Part shown: piece after piece, positions 6,755 to 53,482 of the stretch
Position numbering within the stretch: position 1 is the first letter of the stretch
Layout of the letters: the number at the start of each line of letters is the position of its first letter
NCBI RefSeq assembly: GCF_058153355.1
Contig: NZ_CM177019.1
Length of the DNA stretch: 64,000 nt
Direction: 5' to 3' (one strand)
The notes under the pieces: model-generated
Database searches by the model: none
What the model was told of the DNA's origin: nothing
Seen by the model: the letters and a program-made list of their open reading frames with translations, nothing else
Made by a program: the position numbers and the translations under genes

Positions 6755-7820
6755 TACAGCACTCCTTTCGACGAGGGCAGGGTATCGCCTTCCACGCGGA
6801 TGGCCTGGCGCAGGGTGCGACCAAAAGCTTTGAACAGGCTCTCTACACGGTGGTGATCGTTTTTACCTTTGGTTTTCAGGTGCAGGGTCACGCCCATGGT
6901 GTATGAGAGCGAACGGAAGAAGTGCTCGATCATTTCGGTGCTGAGATCGCCCACGCGCTGGTAGGTAAACTCGGCTTTATATTCCAGGTGCGGGCGACCA
7001 GAGATATCCAGCGCGCAGCGGGCAAGGCATTCGTCCATCGGCAGTACAAAACCAAAGCGGCAAATACCGCGTTTGTCGCCAAGAGCAATTTTTAATGCTT
7101 CGCCCAGCGCCAGGCCGGTATCTTCGACGGTGTGGTGATCGTCGATATAGAGGTCGCCTTTGACGTTGATTTCCATCCGGAAACCGCCGTGGGTGGCGAT
7201 CTGATCCAGCATGTGATCAAAGAAGCCAACGCCGGTGTTAATCTTGCTGCCACCTTCGCGATCCAGCCACACCTGGACGTCAATCTGCGTCTCTTTGGTG
7301 TTGCGCACTACATGGGCGTAACGGTCTCGTTTAGTGAGTTGCTCACCAATCATCGGCCAGTTCAGGGCTTCGCGGTCGTAGCGTAAACCATTAATGCCCA
7401 TGTTTTCCGCCAGTTGAATGTCGGTCGCGCGATCGCCAATCACATAACTGTTAGCGCGATCCATCGCTTGCTCAGCCAGATAACGCTCCACCAGTTTTAC
7501 TTTCGGCTTACGGCAGTCGCACTCATCGGCGGGCAGGTGCGGACAAATCAGCACTTCATCAAACTGCACGCCTTGCGAGGTGAAGATCTGCATCATCAGG
7601 TTGTGCGGGCCATCAAAATCCGCCTGCGGGAAACTTTGTGTTCCCAGACCATCCTGATTAGTGATCATCACCAGTTTGTAGCCCGCTTTTTGCAGCTTCA
7701 GCAGCTGAGGGATCACGCCCGGTTCAAAGGCGAGTTTGTCAAAACGGTCCACCTGAAAATCACTCGGCGGTTCGCTAATCAGGGTTCCATCGCGATCGAT
7801 AAAAAGATACTTCTGACTCA

Positions 7821-38970: not shown

Positions 38971-40404
38971 AAGGGGTAAGCTGAAATCGTTTATGGATTA
39001 CATCGACATATGCCTGGCAGAGAATGTCCGGAATGACGAGGTTATCTTTGCGGAGATTAAGGCAATGGTATACGGGCCGACGTTCCATGCCGCGTTACTA
39101 CATTCAGCCCGGACGTAAAATGCGCCCGTCAAAAAGAACGGTTCGCTTCGAAACTCAGCCAGGATACCACCTCTCCGCCACACCCGAGAAGAAGTTGATA
39201 TGGTGGTTGCCGGACAACAGCGCTCCTGGATTGACTGCTGCATCACTCAACCACGCTGAATATCAAAGGAGAGCGTTACCGGTTAAAAGAGAAACGTAAA
39301 GCTGTGGTGATGACCCAAAACGCAACGCCTGTCAGTGAGGATGAAATGGTGAAAAGCGGACAGCATCAGTAACGGAAGTATCTTAGCGGGTACGAAAATG
39401 GCAGGATCGTGACATTGACAGAATATCTCCTGATCATCCTGAATGACTGCAGTTGCTGTAGAAAAGTAAGCTGTCTCCACCCACGGCACCACTTAACAGG
39501 CATTCCGTAACTTCCCCCAGACTTACTATGACGCATTATCGGTGCACTGAAAACGGGAGAGTGCGCTTAAAACCGCAGACCGCATGCGGGTGTTACTGCA
39601 TGACAGTCTGGCCGTATTGTGAGATGTCGGCAGGAACCGATGTCCGCGCAGGGGGGAACTTCCTGCAGTACCTGACGCTTCAAATGGTATTAACCGTAGG
39701 GTGTTGTTGGTTCCGGATCGCGGAAATGGGAGCACAGGTCTGCTACGGGGTGTACCTCTGACAGTATATCCGGCTCGCTCATCTGACAGCCTCTCTCCCG
39801 GAAAAGACCAAAAATGAGATCGTCTCCTCAACAGCAGAGAAGAGGTCTTGACAGACAGGCTACATTGCATACGATTTATGAAGAAAAAGACAGCAAATAT
39901 GGAGGTTATAGCGGAGAATACCCTACGAAATTCCTATGAAAAACGATTGAAAAAAATATCAAATTCGATTCGTTTTTATATGCTTTTTGGGAGCGTGGCG
40001 ATGACGAACTGTTGCATGTGCAGAGGAGAATGCACCCGGAAGCACCAGAATCATCCAGAAAGGCAGAACGATTACGCATCAAACCAGGAGACAGCAATAT
40101 CAAGGTAATATACTGATTTAAAATGAATTTACAGCAATACGTAAAAACATTTTTTACTTAAAGGAGACAGATGCGCTGAAGAGAGTGCAGGTATTTTTAT
40201 ATAAAAATGAGAAGTTTACGGGATGTATATCCGGCACACTATGACCGGAGAATATCAGTCAAGCTTAAAAAGACAATAAATACAGTGAGTTAAATACACA
40301 GAGAAAACGTAGTATCAGAGGGTACATCTGTAAGCGTCTTATCAGGACCGTCTGGCAAATTCCCGATGCTTTGGACAAAGTATCCACCACTAAATTAATA
40401 GTGG

Positions 40405-40833
40405 GTGATAAAAATGTCAGATATACAAAAAAATGCCTCTCCGGGAAGGCCTAAAGGGTGCCTGAATTATCCTCCTGAATTCAAACAACGACTCATAGAA
40501 GCATCATTCCAGCCAGGTGTTTCAATTTCCAGACTGGCCCTGGACAATGGTATTAATGCCAATCTGTTGTTCAAATGGCGTCAGAAATGGCGGCAGGGGA
40601 AGATAAAATTGCCATCATCAGAATCAGGCAGAGAATCTCAGTTAATTCCTGTCACTATTGATGCCCAACTCCCAACTGCTCCGGCTAATGAGCCACTGAC
40701 CGCAAGACCGTCAGTAACACCGGAAATACACAGCATCTCCTGTGAGATTACGTTCAGAAACGGCACCCTTCGGTTGAACGGGGCAGTGAATGAAAATCTG
40801 CTGTCCTTGCTTATACAGGAGCTGAGACGGTGA
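40405..40833 (+). CDS. IS66 family accessory protein TnpA (Orf1)
   Basis: 142-aa ORF, first gene of the IS66 module. Confidence 0.85.
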   Translation: MIKMSDIQKNASPGRPKGCLNYPPEFKQRLIEASFQPGVSISRLALDNGINANLLFKWRQKWRQGKIKLPSSESGRESQLIPVTIDAQLPTAPANEPLTARPSVTPEIHSISCEITFRNGTLRLNGAVNENLLSLLIQELRR

Positions 40834-41177
40834 TATCTCTCCCTGCAGGTTCGCGTATCTGGCTGGTTGCAGGTATCACCGATATGCGAAATGGCTTTAA
40901 CGGCCTGGCCTCAAAAGTTCAGAACGTCCTGAAGGATGACCCGTTCTCCGGGCATCTGTTCATCTTCCGCGGACGCCGGGGTGACCAGATAAAAGTGTTG
41001 TGGGCTGACAGTGACGGACTGTGCCTCTTCACCAGACGCCTGGAGCGGGGCCGCTTCGTCTGGCCGGTCACCCGTGACGGCAAGGTGCACCTTACTCCGG
41101 CCCAGTTATCCATGCTTCTTGAGGGCATCGACTGGAAACACCCGAAACGAACGGAACGCGCTGGCATCCGCATATAA
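40830..41177 (+). CDS. IS66 family TnpB (Orf2)
   Basis: 115-aa ORF MISLPAGSRIWLVAGITDMRNGFNGL typical of IS66 Orf2. Confidence 0.88.
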   Translation: MISLPAGSRIWLVAGITDMRNGFNGLASKVQNVLKDDPFSGHLFIFRGRRGDQIKVLWADSDGLCLFTRRLERGRFVWPVTRDGKVHLTPAQLSMLLEGIDWKHPKRTERAGIRI

Positions 41178-41196
41178 CCCGTTGTAAAGTGAGGAT

Positions 41197-42768
41197 ATGG
41201 ACACCTCACTTGCTCATGAGAATGCCCGCCTGCGGGCACTGTTGCAGACGCAACAGGACACCATCCGCCAGATGGCGAAATACAACCGCCTGCTCTCACA
41301 GCGGGTGGCGGCTTATGCTTCCGAAATCAACCGGCTGAAGGCGCTGGTTGCAAAACTGCAGCGCATGCAGTTCGGTAAAAGCTCAGAAAAACTTCGTGCA
41401 AAAACCGAACGGCAGATACAGGAAGCACAGGAGCGAATCAGCGCTCTTCAGGAAGAAATGGCGGAAACGCTGGGTGAGCAATATGACCCGGTACTGCCAT
41501 CTCCCCTGCGCCAGTCTTCAGCCCGTAAACCGTTACCTGCCTCACTTCCCCGTGAAACCCGGGTCATCCGTCCGGAAGAGGAATGCTGCCCGGCCTGTGG
41601 TGGCGAACTCAGTTCTCTGGGATGTGATGTGTCAGAGCAACTGGAGCTTATCAGCAGCGCCTTTAAGGTTATCGAAACACAACGTCCGAAACTGGCCTGT
41701 TGCCGGTGCGACCATATCGTGCAGGCTCCGGTGCCTTCAAAACCCATTGCACGCAGTTATGCCGGAGCGGGGCTTCTGGCCCATGTTGTCGCTGGAAAAT
41801 ATGCAGACCATCTGCCGTTATACCGCCAGTCAGAAATATACCGTCGTCAGGGCGTGGAGCTGAGCCGTGCCACACTGGGGCGCTGGACAGGTGCTGTTGC
41901 TGAACTGCTGGAACCGCTGTATGACATCCTGCGCCAGTATGTGCTGATGCCCGGTAAAGTCCATGCCGATGATATCCCCGTTCCGGTCCAGGAGCCGGGC
42001 AGCGGTAAAACAAGGACTGCCCGGCTGTGGGTCTACGTTCGTGATGACCGTAACGCCGGTTCGGAAATGCCTCCGGCGGTCTGGTTCGCGTACAGCCCGG
42101 ACCGGAAAGGTATCCATCCACAGAATCATCTGGCCGGTTACAGCGGAGTGCTTCAGGCCGATGCTTACGGTGGTTACCGGGCGTTGTACGAATCCGGCAG
42201 AATAACGGAAGCCGCATGTATGGCTCATGCCCGGAGAAAAATCCACGATGTGCATGCAAGAGTGCCCACCGACATCACCACGGAAGCCCTGCAGCGTATC
42301 GGTGAACTGTATGCCATCGAGGCAGAGGTCCGGGGCTGTTCAGCAGAACAGCGTCTGGCGGCAAGAAAAGCCAGAGCCGCGCCACTGATGCAGTCACTGT
42401 ATGACTGGATACAGCAACAGATGAAAACACTGTCGCGTCACTCGGACACGGCAAAAGCGTTCGCATACCTGCTGAAACAGTGGGATGCACTGAACGTGTA
42501 CTGCAGTAATGGCTGGGTGGAAATCGACAACAACATCGCAGAGAACGCCTTACGGGGAGTGGCCGTAGGCCGGAAAAACTGGCTCTTCGCGGGTTCTGAC
42601 AGCGGTGGTGAACATGCTGCGGTGTTGTACTCGCTGATCGGCACATGCCGTCTGAACAATGTGGAGCCAGAAAAGTGGCTGCGTTACGTCATTGAACATA
42701 TCCAGGACTGGCCGGCAAACCGGGTACGCGATCTGTTGCCCTGGAAAGTTGATCTGAGCTCTCAGTAA
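41197..42768 (+). CDS. IS66 family transposase TnpC (Orf3)
   Basis: 523-aa ORF with leucine-zipper N-terminus, CxxC zinc motif, DDE domain, C-terminus ...[10 protein letters not shown]. Confidence 0.9.
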
Positions 42769-42967
42769 ATATCAATACGGTTCTGGCGAGCCGCTTACGT
42801 ACATCTTACAACAGAGACTGAATTTCCGGTTTTTCATAACCGGCGCATTCCGGAAAGTGCAGGCGGCCCGGAGGTTTTCTGACGCCACTACCTGGTAGAT
42901 TGTTCTGTACATCATGTACGGAGGTTTTTGTTTGCTTTTTTAAAATCTGCAAATGTGAGAAAAGCAG

Positions 42968-44131
42968 GTGAGGTGTATTGTGGGAAAGGAACTGGATGAT
43001 ATCTGCACCAGCTGTCCGTATATCGATGCTGTAAAACGGCACAAACAACAGCTCGGTGCCATAGAGGAATATACACAGTGGTTAAAAAAAGAACCACGGG
43101 CATCTTATTTTTTTCTGTTCCAGCTGTATACCCGCATTCACAATACATTTTTCTCCCAAAAGCAACAACTCCCGTTCACTCCCGGTGGCACTCACTGCCC
43201 GGAACCTGATGTCACCCTTCGGGACTTAACGCTTTCCCCTGGCTACCACAGTGATTATGCCCCTCAACCCATTCCGGAGATGGACAGTTCTGCTGTTGTT
43301 CCCCCAACTAATGAAAACACCTCGCCTCCGGAAGATACTCCCGACAACACTCCGGCCGGAGGCAATACCGGACAAGCGGAAAAGACCAGAAACGCAGGAC
43401 TCACACCCATTCCTGAAAAACGTTCAGGAATGCCCCCGGAACATCTGCGGTTTGCCACGGGGTTTCCATCGCAACCGAAGATTGCCGGTCCCAGAGAAAA
43501 GCCGATGCGCACCGTGCATCCGGATAAAATCTACCGTGAAATTATATGGTTCTGCTCCAGTTACCTGCTGAAATCCGGACCAGAGGCTACGAGGACGATT
43601 ATCAACTCAGTATTCTCTGAATGGGCCAGCATAAACAATGATTACCCCTCCCCCTTTTCGTGGGTGGACAGCAGGGACAGTGAACAGTGTGACTGGTTAT
43701 GGAACGCCATGCAGGTCCGGTGTGTGGGAACCCCGCTGAATCCCCTTACCCCGGAGCAGAAATACTGGTTTGCCTGCGCCACGTTTGATAACTGGGAGGG
43801 CTGGAATGAGCAACAGGTACAGTTTTTACTGGAAAGTAATCCCAGACGGAACAGAGCGAAGTTTACGCAGGTCTCCTTCCAGGCCCCCAGGATTCAGCAT
43901 AAAGCGATTCTTCTTGATGAGCTGAAAAGTGCCCGGGAGCAACAAAAAAGGCGTGATGAACGTGCTGATGGTTCCGTCCCTCTGAAACTGTCCGGAAAAA
44001 TCCACAAACAGCTTGAAAGTATTGCCCGAAGTCGTGGTGTCCTCCCAAAAAAACTGCTGAATGAAATGATTGAGCAGGCGTACCATGATTTGGTGGCAAC
44101 CAGGCAGAACTGCCAAATCGATTCCAGATAA
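42968..44131 (+). CDS. Hypothetical protein with Pro/Thr-rich linker and C-terminal ribbon-helix-helix-like segment
   Basis: 387-aa ORF; no ATG near the 5' end (GTG start at 42968 or 42980 assumed); low-complexity PPTNENTSPPEDTPDNTPAGG region. Confidence 0.5.
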   Translation: MRCIVGKELDDICTSCPYIDAVKRHKQQLGAIEEYTQWLKKEPRASYFFLFQLYTRIHNTFFSQKQQLPFTPGGTHCPEPDVTLRDLTLSPGYHSDYAPQPIPEMDSSAVVPPTNENTSPPEDTPDNTPAGGNTGQAEKTRNAGLTPIPEKRSGMPPEHLRFATGFPSQPKIAGPREKPMRTVHPDKIYREIIWFCSSYLLKSGPEATRTIINSVFSEWASINNDYPSPFSWVDSRDSEQCDWLWNAMQVRCVGTPLNPLTPEQKYWFACATFDNWEGWNEQQVQFLLESNPRRNRAKFTQVSFQAPRIQHKAILLDELKSAREQQKRRDERADGSVPLKLSGKIHKQLESIARSRGVLPKKLLNEMIEQAYHDLVATRQNCQIDSR

Positions 44132-44159
44132 TTTCAGACAGATATTATTTCCGTGAATC

Positions 44160-44198
44160 CCCCGCCACCTTTCCGGTGCGCGGGGTTTTGTCTTTTTT
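44160..44198 (+). terminator. Rho-independent terminator between the 387-aa ORF and the YeeP-like GTPase gene
   Basis: CCCGCCACC...GGTGCGCGGGG stem followed by GTTTTGTCTTTTTT. Confidence 0.6.
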
Positions 44199-44214
44199 CA
44201 CCGGGAATACATGT

Positions 44215-44874
44215 ATGAATCCGTCTGATGCCATTGAGGCAATTGAAAAACCGCTCTCCTCCCTGCCTTACTCACTTTCCCGTCACATCCTGGAACATCT
44301 GCGCAAACTCACCAGTCACGAACCCGTGCCTGGCATTATGGGTAAAAGCGGGGCCGGTAAATCCTCACTCTGTAATGCGCTGTTTCAGGGGGAGGTCACC
44401 CCGGTCAGTGATGTTCACGCCGGCACCCGGGAAGTGCAGCGCTTCCGTCTGAATGGCCATGGTCACAGCATGGTTATCACTGACCTGCCCGGGGTGGGCG
44501 AGAGCCGGGACAGGGATGCAGAGTATGAAGCCCTGTACCGTGACATTCTGCTCGAACTGGACCTGGTACTGTGGCTGATTAAAGCCGATGACCGTGCCCT
44601 GTCTGTGGATGAGTATTTCTGGCGACACATCCTGCACCGGGGACATCAGCGGGTACTGTTTGTGGTGATGCAGGCCGATAAAACGGAGCCCTGCCATGAA
44701 TGGGATATGGCCGGTATTCAGCCTTCTCCCGCAGAGGCACAGAACATTCGCGAAAAAACGGAGGCGGTATTCCGTCTGTTCCGGCCCGTACATCGGGTTG
44801 TTGCCGTATCGGCCCGCACCGGCTGGGAACTGAACCCGGTGGTGATGTACCAGGCTGTTGTTACAGATTTTTAA
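44215..44874 (+). CDS. Small GTPase of the YeeP/YfjP/YkfA island family
   Basis: Start MNPSDAIEAIE; P-loop GIMGKSGAGKSS, DLPG switch II, QADK-type G4; K-12 has yeeP at the equivalent island position. Confidence 0.8.
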   Translation: MNPSDAIEAIEKPLSSLPYSLSRHILEHLRKLTSHEPVPGIMGKSGAGKSSLCNALFQGEVTPVSDVHAGTREVQRFRLNGHGHSMVITDLPGVGESRDRDAEYEALYRDILLELDLVLWLIKADDRALSVDEYFWRHILHRGHQRVLFVVMQADKTEPCHEWDMAGIQPSPAEAQNIREKTEAVFRLFRPVHRVVAVSARTGWELNPVVMYQAVVTDF

Positions 44875-45050
44875 CTCCATGAAAACACTATGCAAACGCA
44901 GCCATACCCGGGTTGTCCCCTTGCGTTGTGTTTCTCAAGTTAATAGAATACATCAATCGTTACTATCATATCGATCGTTATAAACAATCGTTTGTAGTAA
45001 ATGACCTCCTCCGTGGTTGTCATGAAAATGCGTCTTAGGAAGGTTAAATA

Positions 45051-47447
45051 ATGCACGAAAAGAACATCGCCCTGCTTTGTGATGAAGCCGACCGACTTTT
45101 GCAACTGAACATTAATCTGCTCCGGCAAATGGTTGAGGAGCCAGATGTGTTATCTGACAGTAAGAACGAAAACAGACTGCTTTTTGATAAACAGAAAGCA
45201 CTGAAAAGAATTGAGGAGCTGGAGGGCGAACAAATCAAAACCGCCCGCAGGGAGATGGTGCTGGCTGTTGTCGGCACGATGAAAGCAGGCAAATCAACCA
45301 CCATCAACGCCATTGTGGGGCAGGAAATTCTGCCTAACCGTAACCGCCCCATGACCTCTGTACCGACGCTCATCCGCCACGTTCCCGGAAAAACTGAGCC
45401 GGTTCTCCATCTGGAACATATTCAGCCTGTCCGCAATTTATTAATCACACTGCAGGAAAAACTCGCCACCCCGGCAGGACAGCAGGTCGCACAGACCCTG
45501 CAGCAAACCGGGGATACCCGCGAACTGCTGGATATTCTGACGGATGATGGCTGGCTCAAAAATGAATACCACGGGGAGGAGGAAATCTTTACCGGACTGG
45601 CATCGTTAAACGATCTGGTTCGTCTTGCTGCGGCAATGGGGACTGAATTTCCTTTTGATGAATACGCAGAAGTGCAGAAACTGCCGGTGATCGACGTGGA
45701 ATTCAGCCATCTGGTGGGGATGGATGCATGCCAGGGAACACTCACACTGCTGGATACCCCCGGCCCTAATGAGGCCGGACAACCGCAGATGGAAGTGATG
45801 ATGCGGGATCAACTGCAGAAAGCCTCTGCGGTTCTGGCTGTGATGGATTACACCCAGATGAACTCAAAAGCGGATGAAGACGTCCGTAAAGAGCTTAATG
45901 CCATTGCTGACGTATCAGCCGGCCGCCTGTTTGTACTGGTCAATAAATTTGATGAGAAAGACCGCAATGGCGATGGGGCAGATGCCGTACGCCAGAAAGT
46001 TCCGGCAATGCTGAACAGCGATGTGCTGCCCGCCTCCCGCGTTTATCCCGGATCCTCACGCCAGGCATACCTGGCTAACCGTGCGCTTCATGAGTTACGG
46101 AAAAACGGAACCCTTCCTGTTGATGAAGCCTGGGTCGATGATTTTATCAGAGGTGCCTTCGGTTGCATGAAAAAAGAATACGTCTGTAAAGACAGTGAAC
46201 TGGCAACTGAAGGGGCGACAGACCTGTGGGAAGGCTCACTTATCGATCAACTGATAACGGAAGTCATACAGAGCTCACATTCCAGAGCTGCGGCACTGGC
46301 GGTTGACTCTGCCGCCGCAAAACTGATGCAGAATGCAGAAAATATCAGTGAATACCTGTTGTTACGCCATCAGGGGCTACAGCAAAGCATTCAGTCACTG
46401 CAGTCGCATATCACCAGCCTGCTTGCGGATATCCGGGAAATCGCGGACTGTCAGGAGCAGATGACCACTGATGTCAGAATGGCCATGGAGGAGATCGATA
46501 CTAAAACCCGGGAATTACTGACGGGGGTCTGCACCTCACTGGAAGAGGAGCTGAATGACTATTTCAGAAGCGGTAAACGCAAAGAACAGCAAATGCTGGA
46601 GGAAGAAGACGCAGAACAACGAAGGTCTCAGTCCGGATTATGGGGGAAAATTTCTCAATGGTCCGGTATCAACAACCAGGGCCGGGAGGATTACAGGAAA
46701 CGAGATTTTGCCCCGGACAGCCCCGAAATAAAATTCAGTGATCGCAGGGAAGCCCTTGAACTGATGACGCAAATCGAATCGACCGTGACCAGCCTGCACC
46801 GTGAGGCTGAAGCACAGTTCCGGCCTGAGCTGGAGAAAATCGTCAGCGGGATTGAAACAGGTTTTCGTGGCACGGCCCTGTACGCCACAGAAAACATTGC
46901 CGGTCGCATCAATGCCCGCCTGGAGGATGAGGGCTTTACCGTAAAAATCAGTTTTCCGGCAGTCAGCCAGTTACAGACCCGGCTCGCGGTAAAAATAAAT
47001 CTGAGTGCGCTTATGGAGGAAAGAACGGAGACCGTCACCCGTCGCCGTCGGCAGAGTGGCGTATGGGGAACCGTTTGTCGATGGTTTGGCACCAGTGACC
47101 TGGGCTGGGAAAACTATGACGAGGATGTGAGTCGCAGCGTGATCAATATCAACAAGGTCAGAGAGGAAGTTATGTCACTGACCCGGGCATATTTCGGGGA
47201 GCTGCAGGCATCCATTGAGCAGGATATTAACCAGCCCGTCCGCCAGGAAATCGATGCCTTTTTCTGCGCATTCAGGGAGAAAGTTGAACAACTGCGTAAC
47301 ACGCTGATTCAGAGCTCTGAAGATCATAAACGCGATCAGCAGGCGCAGGAACGGCTTACCGGGCGACTTCAGGCATTAAATGAAAGGGTTCCTGAGCTCA
47401 TTACTGACAGTAAGGCGCTGAGGGAAGAGCTGGAGACAATGCTGTGA
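45051..47447 (+). CDS. Bacterial dynamin-like large GTPase
   Basis: 798-aa ORF; GTPase motifs G1 GTMKAGKST, G3 DTPG, G4 NKFD in the N-terminal third; long helical, coiled-coil-rich C-terminal region; AGGAAGG RBS. Confidence 0.8.
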   Translation: MHEKNIALLCDEADRLLQLNINLLRQMVEEPDVLSDSKNENRLLFDKQKALKRIEELEGEQIKTARREMVLAVVGTMKAGKSTTINAIVGQEILPNRNRPMTSVPTLIRHVPGKTEPVLHLEHIQPVRNLLITLQEKLATPAGQQVAQTLQQTGDTRELLDILTDDGWLKNEYHGEEEIFTGLASLNDLVRLAAAMGTEFPFDEYAEVQKLPVIDVEFSHLVGMDACQGTLTLLDTPGPNEAGQPQMEVMMRDQLQKASAVLAVMDYTQMNSKADEDVRKELNAIADVSAGRLFVLVNKFDEKDRNGDGADAVRQKVPAMLNSDVLPASRVYPGSSRQAYLANRALHELRKNGTLPVDEAWVDDFIRGAFGCMKKEYVCKDSELATEGATDLWEGSLIDQLITEVIQSSHSRAAALAVDSAAAKLMQNAENISEYLLLRHQGLQQSIQSLQSHITSLLADIREIADCQEQMTTDVRMAMEEIDTKTRELLTGVCTSLEEELNDYFRSGKRKEQQMLEEEDAEQRRSQSGLWGKISQWSGINNQGREDYRKRDFAPDSPEIKFSDRREALELMTQIESTVTSLHREAEAQFRPELEKIVSGIETGFRGTALYATENIAGRINARLEDEGFTVKISFPAVSQLQTRLAVKINLSALMEERTETVTRRRRQSGVWGTVCRWFGTSDLGWENYDEDVSRSVININKVREEVMSLTRAYFGELQASIEQDINQPVRQEIDAFFCAFREKVEQLRNTLIQSSEDHKRDQQAQERLTGRLQALNERVPELITDSKALREELETML

Positions 47448-48349
47448 CTTCACCATTTATTCAACAAATTGCTGATAACCGGGTATGTCAGGTACTCACC
47501 TGTCTTCCTGAAAAATTTGTGGTTGATTTCGCAAACGGAATCGATGTTGCACAGGAGCATATCCGCACGGCCGGAGAGAGCACGTTCTTCCGGCGTTTAA
47601 AAGAGGGGCTGACCGGCGAAGGCGCTGCACGGCAGAATGCCATCAATGCGTCGCTTGCACAGGGCGTTGAGGCGTCCCTGCGCTGGCTGACGGAGATGAC
47701 AACGTCACTTGCCACCACAAACTACGCGATTACCCGGGTAAACGACAGGGTCAGTTCACTGGTCAGTGATACAGCCAGGCTGGCGCATTATTCCGCAGAT
47801 ACGCGGGAGCAGTTACTCACCCTGGCCGATCAGGTTCACCATAAACTGAATCATCTTGAAGAAAAACTCCACCGTGTTGACCAGGTTCAGCGGGCGCAGT
47901 TACATCTTGAGCAGATATTCTCATGGTGGAGCGCCGGGCGATATGCGTCATTTTCCCCTGCCGGACGTTGTTATGTGGCACTTGAAGAGCTTCGCTGGGG
48001 CGCGTTTGGTGATGTGATACGTCAGAGCGAAACAGGCCAGGTTAACCAGCTACTGGATATTCTCAGACATAAAGCATTAACGCAGATGGCACAGGAGAGT
48101 GGCGGTAGTGCAACCGTGCGTCTGAACACTCTGGACTGGCTTGGTGGTCAGGGCCGGGAGCAGGCAGATAACGAGTGGCATGACGCGATTAACTGGCTGG
48201 GAGACTGGTGCAGTGAAGAGCAGCATCCGGTGATCTGGTCAACCACGCAGGCTGCAGAACACTTACCGGTTCGCATGCCTCGCCTCTGCTCTGCAGAACG
48301 CCTCTCTGAAAGTATGGTCGATGAAATATTTCAGAAGGGGGCTGCATGA
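47444..48349 (+). CDS. Helical partner protein of the dynamin-like GTPase (no nucleotide-binding motif)
   Basis: 301-aa ORF; start overlaps upstream stop (ATGA) and its stop overlaps the downstream start. Confidence 0.7.
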   Translation: MTSPFIQQIADNRVCQVLTCLPEKFVVDFANGIDVAQEHIRTAGESTFFRRLKEGLTGEGAARQNAINASLAQGVEASLRWLTEMTTSLATTNYAITRVNDRVSSLVSDTARLAHYSADTREQLLTLADQVHHKLNHLEEKLHRVDQVQRAQLHLEQIFSWWSAGRYASFSPAGRCYVALEELRWGAFGDVIRQSETGQVNQLLDILRHKALTQMAQESGGSATVRLNTLDWLGGQGREQADNEWHDAINWLGDWCSEEQHPVIWSTTQAAEHLPVRMPRLCSAERLSESMVDEIFQKGAA

Positions 48350-49416
48350 GTACAGAAATGAAAACGGGGCTGGTGCTGTCCGGTGGCGGGGCGGTGGGCG
48401 CTTATCAGGCGGGAGTGGTTAAGGCACTGGCAGAGTGTGGTACACAGATCAGCATGGTTTCAGGGGCCAGCATTGGCGCATTCAATGGTGCCATTATCGC
48501 GGCCTCTCCCGATCTGTCAGAAGCTGCCGTACGCCTGGAGGCGCTCTGGGATCATCTGGGGAATAATCAGGTGCTGTCGGTAAACAGATTGGTTTACTTT
48601 TCATTGCTGAAAAAATTGTTCCAGGCAATGAACCTCTGCCAGATCCCCGGACGTGCAGGAGCACTGCTTACGACGCTTCTTCGCCATATATCGACAATCA
48701 ACGGGTTTGACAATCTGATGGCTCAGCCGTTGTTGTCAGATGAGCCCCTGACAGCGCTGATGGATCATTATCTTGATACTGATGCTCTGGCAGACGGGCT
48801 ACCGCTGTATGTGTCGCTGTACCCCACAGAAGGGGGCATGCAGGATATTATTGACTGCATTCGTGCTGAACTGGGTGTCGGAACCACGAAAAACGCCGTT
48901 TTTCAGCATATCCAGAGCCTGCCCCGCGGACAGCAGAAAGAGGCTCTGCTTGCGTCAGCCGCGCTGCCCCTGCTGTTCCGTCCCCGTGAGGTTCAGGGGA
49001 CAATGTTCGGTGATGGTGGTATGGGAGGATGGCGAAATATGCAGGGAAATACCCCTGTGACGCCTCTGGTCGATGCCGGATGCAATATGGTGATTGTGAC
49101 GCATCTGAGTGACGGTTCTTTATGGGATCGCCAGGCTTTTCCGGACACCACAATCCTTGAGATCCGTCCCCGGAAAAGGCTGAAATATGCAGGTGATGGT
49201 GGCAACAGCGGCGGTCTGCTCAGTTTTACATCGGCACATACCGACGCCTGGCGTCAGCAGGGCTATGAAGACACGATGCTGGCGATGGAGCATATCCGGA
49301 AACCGCTGGCAGCACGTCAGGCACTGACCCGGTCAGAGGCGGTATTGCAGAAAAGCCTGGATATAACGGAAGAGGCAGATTTGGCACTGAGAAACGCGAT
49401 GGCCCGGATTAAATAA
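48346..49416 (+). CDS. Patatin-like phospholipase
   Basis: 356-aa ORF with oxyanion-hole motif SGGGAVG, nucleophile elbow GASIG (GxSxG) and catalytic DGG (FGDGGMGG). Confidence 0.85.
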   Translation: MSTEMKTGLVLSGGGAVGAYQAGVVKALAECGTQISMVSGASIGAFNGAIIAASPDLSEAAVRLEALWDHLGNNQVLSVNRLVYFSLLKKLFQAMNLCQIPGRAGALLTTLLRHISTINGFDNLMAQPLLSDEPLTALMDHYLDTDALADGLPLYVSLYPTEGGMQDIIDCIRAELGVGTTKNAVFQHIQSLPRGQQKEALLASAALPLLFRPREVQGTMFGDGGMGGWRNMQGNTPVTPLVDAGCNMVIVTHLSDGSLWDRQAFPDTTILEIRPRKRLKYAGDGGNSGGLLSFTSAHTDAWRQQGYEDTMLAMEHIRKPLAARQALTRSEAVLQKSLDITEEADLALRNAMARIK

Positions 49417-49746
49417 AGACGCCCCAAAGAAACGCCACCGCCTGTGGTGGTGTTTTTCCTGTCTGGTGTTATTGAAAATATTTTCATATATATATTACCT
49501 GAGAGAAAGTTTTACCCCTCACCTGTCAATTCACTCACTGGAAATTTAATTATGAAATTACCTGTAAAGTTATTAATGAGCCTTATATCTCTGGTCAGCG
49601 TTATTGCACGTGCCGGGGAATATAAAAATTACAGCCGGGATGAAATAAAATACTGGCGATATACATCATACAAGGGGGGGAAACTTCCGGAAGGTTTCAC
49701 TGATGAGAAATTTTCCAGCGCCATTTACAACGGAAGAATATTTACA

Positions 49747-50235
49747 ATGAAACGTTTACATACCCTTATGTTATTTCTGGCGGTTCTGTTCACGGGCTTT
49801 AACTTTAACGCAGAAGCGGCTACCGTAAAACAAGCTCTTAGTTGTAACCCGGAAGCCTGGGCTGAACAACCTGGAGCGTGTCCATCAACGTACGAGTTGT
49901 ACGAAGGTGACGCTACCTACAAAGCCGCTATCGACAAAGCATTAAAACCGGTCGGACTGAGCGGCATGTTCGGTAAAGGCGGCTATATGGATGGCCCTGG
50001 TGGAGGTATCACGCCAGTAAACATTAACGGTACAGTCTGGTTCCAGGGCGACGGTTGCAAAGCCAATACCTGCGGCTGGGACTTTATCGTAACACTCTAT
50101 AACCCAAAAACCCATGAAGTTGTTGGCTACCGTTACTTTGGTTTAGATGACCCGGCCTACCTGGTTTGGTTCGGTGAAATTGGCGTGCATGAATTCGCGT
50201 ATCTGGTGAAAAACTACGTAGCTGCGGTTAACTAA
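49747..50235 (+). CDS. Secreted protein, possibly Ivy-like (inhibitor of vertebrate lysozyme fold)
   Basis: Signal peptide MKRLHTLMLFLAVLFTGFNFNAEA; loop GDGCKANTCGWDFIV resembles the Ivy CKPHDCG motif; same frame is open upstream to an ATG at 49552 with a second signal-like segment, so the start is uncertain. Confidence 0.5.
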   Translation: MKRLHTLMLFLAVLFTGFNFNAEAATVKQALSCNPEAWAEQPGACPSTYELYEGDATYKAAIDKALKPVGLSGMFGKGGYMDGPGGGITPVNINGTVWFQGDGCKANTCGWDFIVTLYNPKTHEVVGYRYFGLDDPAYLVWFGEIGVHEFAYLVKNYVAAVN

Positions 50236-50250
50236 TTTAAGGAGTCTATC

Positions 50251-50661
50251 ATGAAAACTTTTATCAAAACTTTACTCGTTGCTGTAACTATTCTGTTCTC
50301 TGTCTTCGCTACTGCGAAACAAGTAAAACTGCCAAATAACATCAAATACGTTAATACTACAGAAGCGTTTTCCTGTACCGAAATTGACGGTATGAATTGC
50401 CAGACAAAGAATCAGTTCAACTATAAAGATAACAGCTATGTTTTCGTGCTTGAACGTGGTGGTGCCTGGTGCTACGACTACACTGTCTCGGTAGTTAACC
50501 TGAAAACCGGGAAAGCACAAATGATTGAATACGGGGACAATCAACTGTGCTCAGGTAGCAACAAACCGTTCTTCGAAATCAAAAATGGCGTACCGACGGT
50601 AGGAGTCATCGACACATCCGGAAAACCTGTCGTTGTAGCCCAGGACAAACTTAAAATCTAA
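50251..50661 (+). CDS. Small secreted protein with four cysteines
   Basis: 136-aa ORF with signal peptide MKTFIKTLLVAVTILFSVFATA; AAGGAG RBS. Confidence 0.6.
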   Translation: MKTFIKTLLVAVTILFSVFATAKQVKLPNNIKYVNTTEAFSCTEIDGMNCQTKNQFNYKDNSYVFVLERGGAWCYDYTVSVVNLKTGKAQMIEYGDNQLCSGSNKPFFEIKNGVPTVGVIDTSGKPVVVAQDKLKI

Positions 50662-52818: not shown

Positions 52819-53040
52819 ATGAAAATTATCACCCGTGGTGAAGCCATGCGTATTCACCAACAACATCCGACATCCCGTCTTTTTCCGTTCTGTACCGGTA
52901 AATACCGCTGGCACGGCAGTGCTGAAGCGTATACCGGTCGTGAAGTGCAGGATATTCCCGGTGTGCTGGCCGTGTTTGCTGAACGCCGTAAGGACAGTTT
53001 TGGTCCGTATGTCCGGCTGATGAGCGTCACCCTGAACTGA
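52819..53040 (+). CDS. yeeT: DUF987 protein YeeT
   Basis: 73-aa ORF MKIITRGEAMRIHQQHP...; conserved position before cbeA. Confidence 0.85.
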   Translation: MKIITRGEAMRIHQQHPTSRLFPFCTGKYRWHGSAEAYTGREVQDIPGVLAVFAERRKDSFGPYVRLMSVTLN

Positions 53041-53113
53041 GTGGGAATTCTGATGAGCAGAATTATCGCCACTACCGGACCATTCTTAGCCGATTTTCTG
53101 TAAGGATTTTATC

Positions 53114-53482
53114 GTGTCAGACACACTCCCCGGGACAACACTTCCCGACGACAATCACGACCGCCCCTGGTGGGGGCTGCCCTGCACCGTGACGCCCTGT
53201 TTCGGGGCACGTCTGGTGCAGGAGGGTAACCGGTTGCATTACCTTGCCGACCGCGCCGGTATCAGAGGCCTGTTCAGCGATGCAGATGCGTACCACCTGG
53301 ACCAGGCCTTTCCGCTGCTGATGAAACAACTGGAACTCATGCTCACCAGCGGTGAACTGAATCCCCGCCATCAGCATACCGTCACGCTGTATGCAAAAGG
53401 GCTGACCTGCAAAGCCGATACCCTCAGCAGTTGTGGTTACGTTTATCTGGCTGTTTATCCGACGCCCGAAATGAAAAATTAA
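53114..53482 (+). CDS. cbeA: Type IV antitoxin CbeA (YeeU)
   Basis: 122-aa ORF matching CbeA/YeeU. Confidence 0.88.
   Translation: MSDTLPGTTLPDDNHDRPWWGLPCTVTPCFGARLVQEGNRLHYLADRAGIRGLFSDADAYHLDQAFPLLMKQLELMLTSGELNPRHQHTVTLYAKGLTCKADTLSSCGYVYLAVYPTPEMKN

Follow-up and report, generated by a model that had tools for sequence, protein, structure and literature searches.

Known Dam/OxyR Switches and Dynamin-Type Operons

Phase variation by Dam and OxyR is a textbook example of a bacterial epigenetic switch, and to our knowledge it is known in E. coli for only one gene family, Ag43/Cah. At agn43 (flu), OxyR acts as a repressor and methylation of three GATC sites abolishes its binding. Expression is locked OFF when dam is mutated and locked ON when oxyR is mutated or Dam is overproduced, and switching occurs at a rate of approximately 1e-3 per generation (PMC2909390, PMC3764049, PMC4872104, PMC13337833). 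The gtr and opvAB systems of Salmonella, which were horizontally acquired, also have OxyR half-sites placed over GATCs and give rise to heritable ON and OFF lineages (PMC2909390, PMC4856963).

Dynamin-type systems described in bacteria include the RdcA(YjdA/CrfC)-RdcB(YjcZ) pair of E. coli K-12 and LeoABC/Eleos, neither of which has been reported to be phase-variable. The locus described here, in which a switch of the agn43 type precedes a dynamin operon, is apparently an undescribed member of the Dam/OxyR switches. Full-text literature searches for dynamin together with OxyR, GATC or phase variation, whose coverage did not extend to subscription journals, returned no description of such a switch.

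Genomic Context of the Locus

The DNA analyzed (hereafter the window) is a stretch of 64,000 nucleotides from contig NZ_CM177019.1 of assembly GCF_058153355.1. It represents an Escherichia-type chromosome, in which gnd, ugd, the his operon and sbcB are followed by an IS-rich island and then by cobUST, tRNA-Asn, nac and cbl, and the island is located at the chromosomal site of the K-12 CP4-44 element. The closest relative of the window, and the closest complete genome, is E. coli VL7S7 (L011), which is collinear with the window to the left (gnd-his-sbcB) and to the right (cobUST-nac-cbl) of the island. The island itself (approximately 24.3-56 kb) is inverted and rearranged in comparison with VL7S7, with IS elements at the breakpoints. 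An insertion relative to another close relative, L001, was found at 40330-42798; it contains an IS66-family transposase gene (41197-42768), and the open reading frames at 40405-40833 and 40830-41177 resemble IS66 accessory genes.

On the 3' side of the dynamin operon, DUF932, an antirestriction gene, yeeS, yeeT, cbeA, cbtA and yeeW were identified. A patch at 52863-53364, located 3' of the antirestriction/yeeS-type genes and towards the cbeA-cbtA toxin-antitoxin genes, shows dense substitutions and a 6-bp indel when compared with VL7S7, which suggests a recombination tract between paralogous CP4-type islands.

The Dynamin/RdcB/Patatin Operon

The first gene of the operon (45051-47447, plus strand, as are all genes of the operon) encodes a dynamin-family GTPase, a full-length paralogue of CrfC/RdcA (YjdA) that matches Pfam Dynamin_N and NCBIfam CrfC (E=1e-166). 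Because its CrfC score of 556 bits is below the cut-off of 1146, the protein should be considered a paralogue and not an equivalog. It is followed by genes for an RdcB/YjcZ-family protein (47444-48349; Pfam YjcZ, E=4e-70) and a patatin-like phospholipase (48346-49416; Pfam Patatin, E=3e-24), and then by two hypothetical genes (49552-50235 and 50251-50661) that are annotated in L001 and belong to no Pfam family. The latter two probably complete a five-gene operon, in agreement with the five co-regulated genes of MP1 (PMC12922286).

The operon resembles the RdcA-RdcB pair of K-12 in its Dynamin_N and YjcZ domains and in the full-length alignment of its dynamin to CrfC. However, the dynamin of the window falls below the CrfC cut-off (approximately 30% identity is reported in PMC12922286), and the additional patatin phospholipase distinguishes the operon from both RdcA-RdcB and LeoABC/Eleos. 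Membership in Eleos was also considered and ruled out, as PADLOC provided only a marginal LeoBC match (E=9e-5 over 60 residues) and no LeoA match. Judging from the family names and the discussion in PMC12922286, the cargo might function in membrane remodelling or defence.

Repeats in the Intergenic Region

The original prediction for this DNA had drawn attention to three ATCGTT direct repeats in an AT-rich stretch before the dynamin gene, which were regarded as an operator. A string search of the window confirmed the three copies on the plus strand (44956-44961, 44974-44979 and 44987-44992), whose extended forms are cAATCGTTa, cGATCGTTa and cAATCGTTt at distances of 18 and 13 bp. The stretch is indeed A+T-rich (72%, compared with a window mean of 50%) and is followed by the Shine-Dalgarno sequence AGGAAGG of the dynamin gene (45037-45043) and its ATG at 45051. 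The length of 176 bp given for the gap between the open reading frames (44875-45050) is also right for the window, while the GTPase gene of relatives ends at the position equivalent to 44833.

As a hexamer, ATCGTT is not enriched in the window (42 occurrences observed and 36 expected). In simulated 64-kb sequences, approximately one non-overlapping triple of any hexamer within 31 bp could be found (at least one in 57% of the sequences), and the real window contains four. Three copies of the ancestral 8-mer CGATCGTT were present in 0 of 200 simulations. The bare hexamer statistic is thus unremarkable, and the significance of the repeats comes from their homology to a characterised switch. These frequencies would be in line with a chance repeat in an A+T-rich spacer that has no function, a reading to which we give hardly any credence in view of the position-by-position homology described below, its conservation across E. 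coli and E. albertii, and the finding that orthologous sites are unmethylated in vivo.

Homology to the Switches of flu/agn43 and cah

A 220-bp intergenic region including the repeats was detected in 1985 of 5426 complete E. coli genomes, invariably ahead of the dynamin gene. Its weakest match was instead the sequence that separates a yeeP-like GTPase gene from cah, which is the Ag43 homologue in O157:H7. A module with homology to the regulatory regions of flu/agn43 and cah, comprising both promoter and switch, could be delimited at 44834-44999 on the plus strand (73.5% BLAST match 5' of cah). The common allele contains CGATCG three times and hence three GATC Dam sites, and a 70-mer with the three GATCs is identical in 816 of the approximately 2000 complete genomes carrying the region. 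In the first and third repeats, aligned relatives have CGATCG where the window has CAATCG, which implies that the ancestral element contained three GATC Dam sites and that the AATC copies of the window are derived. Moreover, the bases following GATC differ among relatives (GATCGCT, GATCATT and GATCGGT). Taken together with the derived AATC copies, this variation points to the palindromic Dam site (C)GATC(G), and not ATCGTT, as the functional unit. Of the predicted operator, a regulatory protein-binding element in the promoter region of the dynamin operon is therefore retained, and the ATCGTT iteron as its unit is abandoned.

The three GATCs of the dynamin type align one-to-one with those of flu and cah, all three being invariant, with spacings of 18 + 13 bp in the dynamin type versus 19 + 13 bp in flu and cah. 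From the -35 element to GATC-III, the dynamin type shows 76% identity to cah and 70% to flu, compared with 74% between cah and flu. Downstream of GATC-III the similarity of the dynamin type drops to 52%, and homology stops approximately 10 nt past the third site. This pattern indicates that the operon inherited an Ag43 promoter-switch module and that the cargo changes approximately 10 nt after GATC-III. Judged by the alignment, homology of the three-GATC element to the agn43-type switch is very probable.

With regard to distribution, the linkage between the three-GATC switch and the dynamin operon was also observed in E. albertii. A pattern scan of metagenomes yielded 120 switches, 96 of them in front of Ag43-like genes and 20 in front of the dynamin gene; the downstream sequences of the other four were too short to be classified, and no third type of cargo was found among the 120 matches. 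All three GATCs are retained in 41 of 42 related switches that were retrieved regardless of sites. Within the dynamin-type loci, which show little diversity, no significant difference in variability could be found between GATC columns (1/12 variable) and their flanks (19/122). A search for distant dynamin relatives yielded only E. albertii in the scan of genome contigs and only E. coli proteins of 93-100% identity in the protein search, which makes a deep phylogenetic footprint impossible.

In a separate observation, on the one viral contig that matched (IMG/VR; L049, 769-816), a three-GATC switch of the cah type and approximately 110 nt from the start of its leader abut phage late genes (DUF968, antiterminator Q, holin and terminase), with no autotransporter gene, which is probably a prophage junction or rearrangement.

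Predicted Promoter and Leader

A sigma-70 promoter could be assigned by homology to the K-12 flu promoter, with a predicted -35 element TTGCGT (44921-44926) and a predicted -10 element TAGAAT (44944-44949) on the plus strand, separated by a spacer of 17 bp. CTTG is invariant in comparison with flu and cah, and TAATAGAAT is invariant in dynamin-, cah- and flu-type loci. The elements in the window are arranged in the order TTGCGT(44921)-17 bp-TAGAAT(44944)-ACATC-AATCGTTACTATCATATC-GATCGTTATAAAC-AATCGTTTGTAG. Another pair, TTAATA-18-TATCAT, had been proposed by a generic promoter scan and was dropped in favour of the homology-defined elements.

In the K-12 annotation, the 5' end of the flu leader/IsrC is the G of GATC-I. 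The flu start was reportedly mapped at GATC-I by Wallecha et al. in 2002, with an OxyR footprint from -16 to +42. By analogy, transcription of the dynamin operon is predicted to start at 44955, giving a leader of approximately 96 nt. The repeats would then lie at and just 3' of the start (+1 to +35), and not 5' of a promoter. No terminator was found between the upstream GTPase gene and the switch, so that read-through may add to the expression of the operon.

In the minimum-energy structure of the leader, ACCUCCUCC (45004-45043) is paired with AGGAAGG, the Shine-Dalgarno sequence; this structure was not significantly different from that of shuffled sequences (z = -0.67). An Rfam scan of 44000-46000 provided no match at E<=1, including IsrC.

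Several features are thus common to this locus and to agn43 (flu) and cah, including the position directly 3' of a yeeP-like GTPase gene within a CP4-type island, the TTG of the -35 element, the 17-bp spacer, the -10 element TAGAAT, the (here predicted) start at GATC-I, the 13-bp spacing between GATC-II and GATC-III, and the placement of three GATCs, unmethylated in vivo in CFT073, inside an OxyR-type site. On the other hand, the cargo is not a surface autotransporter but a cytoplasmic dynamin/RdcB/patatin operon, GATC-I and GATC-II are 18 bp apart in the dynamin type and 19 bp apart in agn43/cah, and the window allele lacks two of the three GATCs. The dynamin switch also differs from flu in its short leader, which has no homology to the long leader/IsrC of flu, and in its better match to the OxyR consensus.

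Genes Upstream of the Switch

The gene directly upstream of the switch is a truncated and frameshifted yeeP-like GTPase gene (44176-44874, plus strand; Pfam MMR_HSR1/Dynamin_N). In comparison with L001, L011 and others, a 251-bp deletion with its junction at approximately 44830-44832 has removed part of the 3' region of this gene and shifted the frame, and the open reading frame consequently ends at 44874, not at the equivalent of 44833. The same deletion junction was found in an independent assembly (L170). A yeeP-like gene or remnant is present upstream of the switch in all 23 loci compared.

Farther upstream, an open reading frame at 42968-44131 (plus strand) encodes a hypothetical protein of 387 aa, which had been described as RHH-like and proposed as the dedicated regulator acting on the ATCGTT iterons. 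The presence of three direct repeats near the promoter and the location of this gene 0.8 kb upstream on the same strand fit such an arrangement. However, no family or DNA-binding domain could be assigned to the protein in five libraries (Pfam, NCBIfam, PADLOC, PHROGs and PDB sequences), and in 20 of 23 related loci no copy of the gene occurs within 4 kb upstream of the switch, so that the co-inherited, linked gene for a DNA-binding protein that marks an iteron-type system was not found. In addition, the conserved unit is GATC, and Ag43 genes, whose regulators are OxyR and Dam, have this element as well. Control by this protein is therefore considered very unlikely, and its description as RHH-like could not be upheld, although the more general proposal that the dynamin operon has its own control appears to be right.

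A Candidate OxyR-Type Site

A sequence resembling an OxyR-tetramer site, ATCAATCGTTACTAT-CATATCG-ATCGTTATAAACAAT, is located at 44952-44988. When scored against the consensus ATAGnTnnnAnCTAT-N7-ATAGnTnnnAnCTAT, as quoted in PMC2909390, the window allele matches at 15 of 20 positions and the common dynamin allele with three GATCs at 16, while K-12 flu and O157 cah reach 14/20 and 13/20, respectively. The site is the best match to the OxyR consensus in the window on both strands (128 kb searched). According to our own binomial estimate, a match of 15-16/20 is expected by chance about once per 128 kb, and it carries weight because it occupies the position homologous to the OxyR site of agn43. The first ATAG element has its consensus G at the G of GATC-I, the spacer ends with the G of GATC-II, and the G of GATC-III falls on a consensus T position. 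This candidate OxyR-tetramer site would span approximately -4 to +34 and cover all three GATCs. Compared with Salmonella gtr/opvAB, which have four GATCs and alternative OxyR sites 5' of the promoter and where OxyR also activates, the dynamin switch appears to resemble agn43 in having only one repressor-type site, which lies over the start.

Two other places in the window attracted attention, both unlike the switch and probably incidental: a 14/20 match to the OxyR consensus at 1510-1546, in the A+T-rich gnd-ugd intergenic region, and three GATCs within 18 bp at 7198-7215, inside hisB.

Methylation and Expression in Other Strains

Evidence from living cells is provided by published data on E. 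coli CFT073. In the supplementary SMRT table of Blow et al. 2016 (PMC4752239), the GATCs of CFT073 that are unmodified on both strands include 268724/268737/268755 and 2358454/2358472/2358485, as well as both agn43 triplets (1225386/405/418 and 3491586/605/618). Verification of the coordinates demonstrated that the first set corresponds to GATC-III/II/I of one CFT073 dynamin switch and the second to GATC-I/II/III of the other. All six orthologous sites are thus shielded from Dam in vivo in the manner of OFF-phase agn43. In Table 2 of PMC4752239 the cluster is placed "upstream of TonB dependent receptor"; in fact, the TonB receptor gene of CFT073 is just a neighbour that diverges from the yeeP remnant.

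Two more unmethylated GATCs of CFT073, 26 bp apart (NC_004431, 2357478 and 2357504; L047 ~979-1008), were noted in the same data (PMC4752239). They are located directly 5' of the TonB-dependent receptor gene and constitute a separate protected site beside the dynamin switch, and Table 2 of that study merges both clusters under "TonB dependent receptor".

Some protein occupies the dynamin-switch sites in CFT073, and non-methylation by itself does not give its identity. A Dam-sensitive switch of the same architecture might be bound by a protein other than OxyR, such as another LysR-type or island-encoded factor, Lrp, SeqA or H-NS. The SMRT data, which reveal protection and not the protector, would fit this reading, and both the A+T-richness of the region (72%) and the I-II spacing, 1 bp shorter than in agn43, could be cited in its favour. 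By eye, the region shows only a weak resemblance to the H-NS nucleation motif. Against this reading, direct homology links the second half-site (GATC-II to GATC-III) to its counterpart in agn43, the whole site fits the OxyR consensus better than agn43 does, and agn43 needs no further factor. Binding by a protein other than OxyR is accordingly regarded as improbable, and a Dam/OxyR phase-variation mechanism is considered likely for the common three-GATC allele, largely by analogy with agn43.

Expression data are available for MP1. In an RNA-seq study of 2026, the homologous five-gene dynamin/RdcB/phospholipase operon was the most strongly differential gene set between the wild type and an otherwise isogenic prophage-cured derivative, the reads multi-mapping between two operon copies; the difference was present under every condition and did not follow prophage induction. 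According to the authors, the regulation of such dynamins was undescribed (PMC12922286). A heritable phase state that was set at the construction of the derivative would account for this difference (cf. PMC3764049), which could also be a real prophage effect.

Loss of GATC Sites in the Window Allele

The window contains one GATC and two AATC sites in place of the three GATCs. A G>A change at 44955 has converted GATC-I (44955-44958; GATC in L001, L002, L004, L005, L010, L011 and others) and another at 44986 has converted GATC-III (44986-44989, by comparison with relatives), leaving GATC-II (44973-44976) as the sole Dam site. In comparison with L001 and VL7S7, these two changes are among very few differences. 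Both together were not found in any complete E. coli genome (best match 98.6% over 70 bp). Single losses occur in three complete genomes, at site I in L007 and at site III in L006 and L008, and GATC-II has become AATC in L026, one of the 42 switches retrieved regardless of sites. All GATC losses observed, at each of the three sites, are GATC>AATC and never GATT, despite the palindromic CGATCG; this bias could reflect selection, a strand-specific mutation process or base-calling bias.

As a separate variant, L033 (CP002211.1), also one of these 42 switches, has a 1-bp deletion between GATC-I and GATC-II, which shortens the spacing from 18 to 17 bp and could alter switching.

Methylation is linked to base-calling error. 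It might therefore be asked whether the AATC sites of the window are sequencing or base-calling artefacts at GATCs of unusual methylation state and the strain really has a three-GATC switch, especially as the five losses (two in the window and those in L006/L008, L007 and L026) are all G>A on the same strand, which could be a systematic caller error, and as the double change is seen in no complete genome. Against this, the approximately 200 other GATCs of the window show no such change relative to close relatives. In addition, the identical double AATC, together with the same 251-bp deletion, recurs in the assembly of an independent public run (Logan SRR31441161, L170), which argues that the double-AATC allele is real. 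An artefact thus seems unlikely. A general GATC>AATC artefact was also rejected after all differences of the window from its two close relatives had been listed, of which only the two switch sites showed this change.

If the allele is taken as real, one methylatable GATC remains within a nearly intact OxyR-like site, and methylation should no longer exclude OxyR. By analogy with agn43, the operon of the window would then be locked or biased OFF, which we consider somewhat more likely than not. The direction of locking is uncertain because the G>A change at 44955 hits the consensus G of an OxyR half-site. It is possible, though doubtful, that this change weakens OxyR binding and leads to an intermediate or low constitutive expression, comparable with the "partial" level of agn43 expression observed when neither protein acts (PMC4872104). 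It is unlikely that the window allele retains switching.

Proposed Model of Switching

The comparisons demonstrate the homology, the architecture of promoter and site, the match to the consensus, the unmethylated state of the orthologous sites in CFT073, and a double mutant that is both rare and reproducible. From them we infer the binding of OxyR, the reversibility of switching and the direction of locking. According to the model, the switch would have moved, along with its sigma-70 promoter, from its place 3' of a yeeP-like GTPase gene to a position ahead of the dynamin/RdcB/patatin operon. In the common allele, transcription would start at the G of GATC-I. If OxyR arrives first after replication, RNA polymerase would be blocked and the GATCs shielded from Dam, resulting in a heritable OFF state; if Dam methylates the sites first, OxyR would be excluded and the operon would be ON. 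In the window allele, a single methyl group probably fails to exclude OxyR, and the operon would most likely be locked or strongly biased OFF; low constitutive expression caused by weakened OxyR binding would be the less likely alternative.

Implications

Combining these observations, a broader picture may be proposed, which we consider about as likely to be right as wrong: a promoter and three-GATC OxyR cassette that is portable and tied to the 3' ends of yeeP-like GTPase genes would, in addition to its role at Ag43 adhesins, make the cytoplasmic dynamin/RdcB/patatin operon, with a putative function in membrane defence, bistable in approximately one third of E. coli strains, with recurrent, strand-specific AATC "locked" alleles, among which the window would represent a double hit. 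The cassette is found before the dynamin/phospholipase operon in approximately 37% of complete E. coli genomes. The window allele, with two of its three GATCs lost, offers a natural mutant for the number of methyl marks needed.

If the model is true, the unmethylated "TonB-receptor" cluster of CFT073 and the "prophage-induced" dynamin operon of MP1 would be reinterpreted, and expression studies of the island would hinge on the colony picked. It would also offer a tangible starting point for the regulation of bacterial dynamin operons, which has been stated to be undescribed (PMC12922286). Moreover, epigenetic bistability would extend from surface adhesins to a cytoplasmic module, possibly one with an anti-phage or membrane-repair role.
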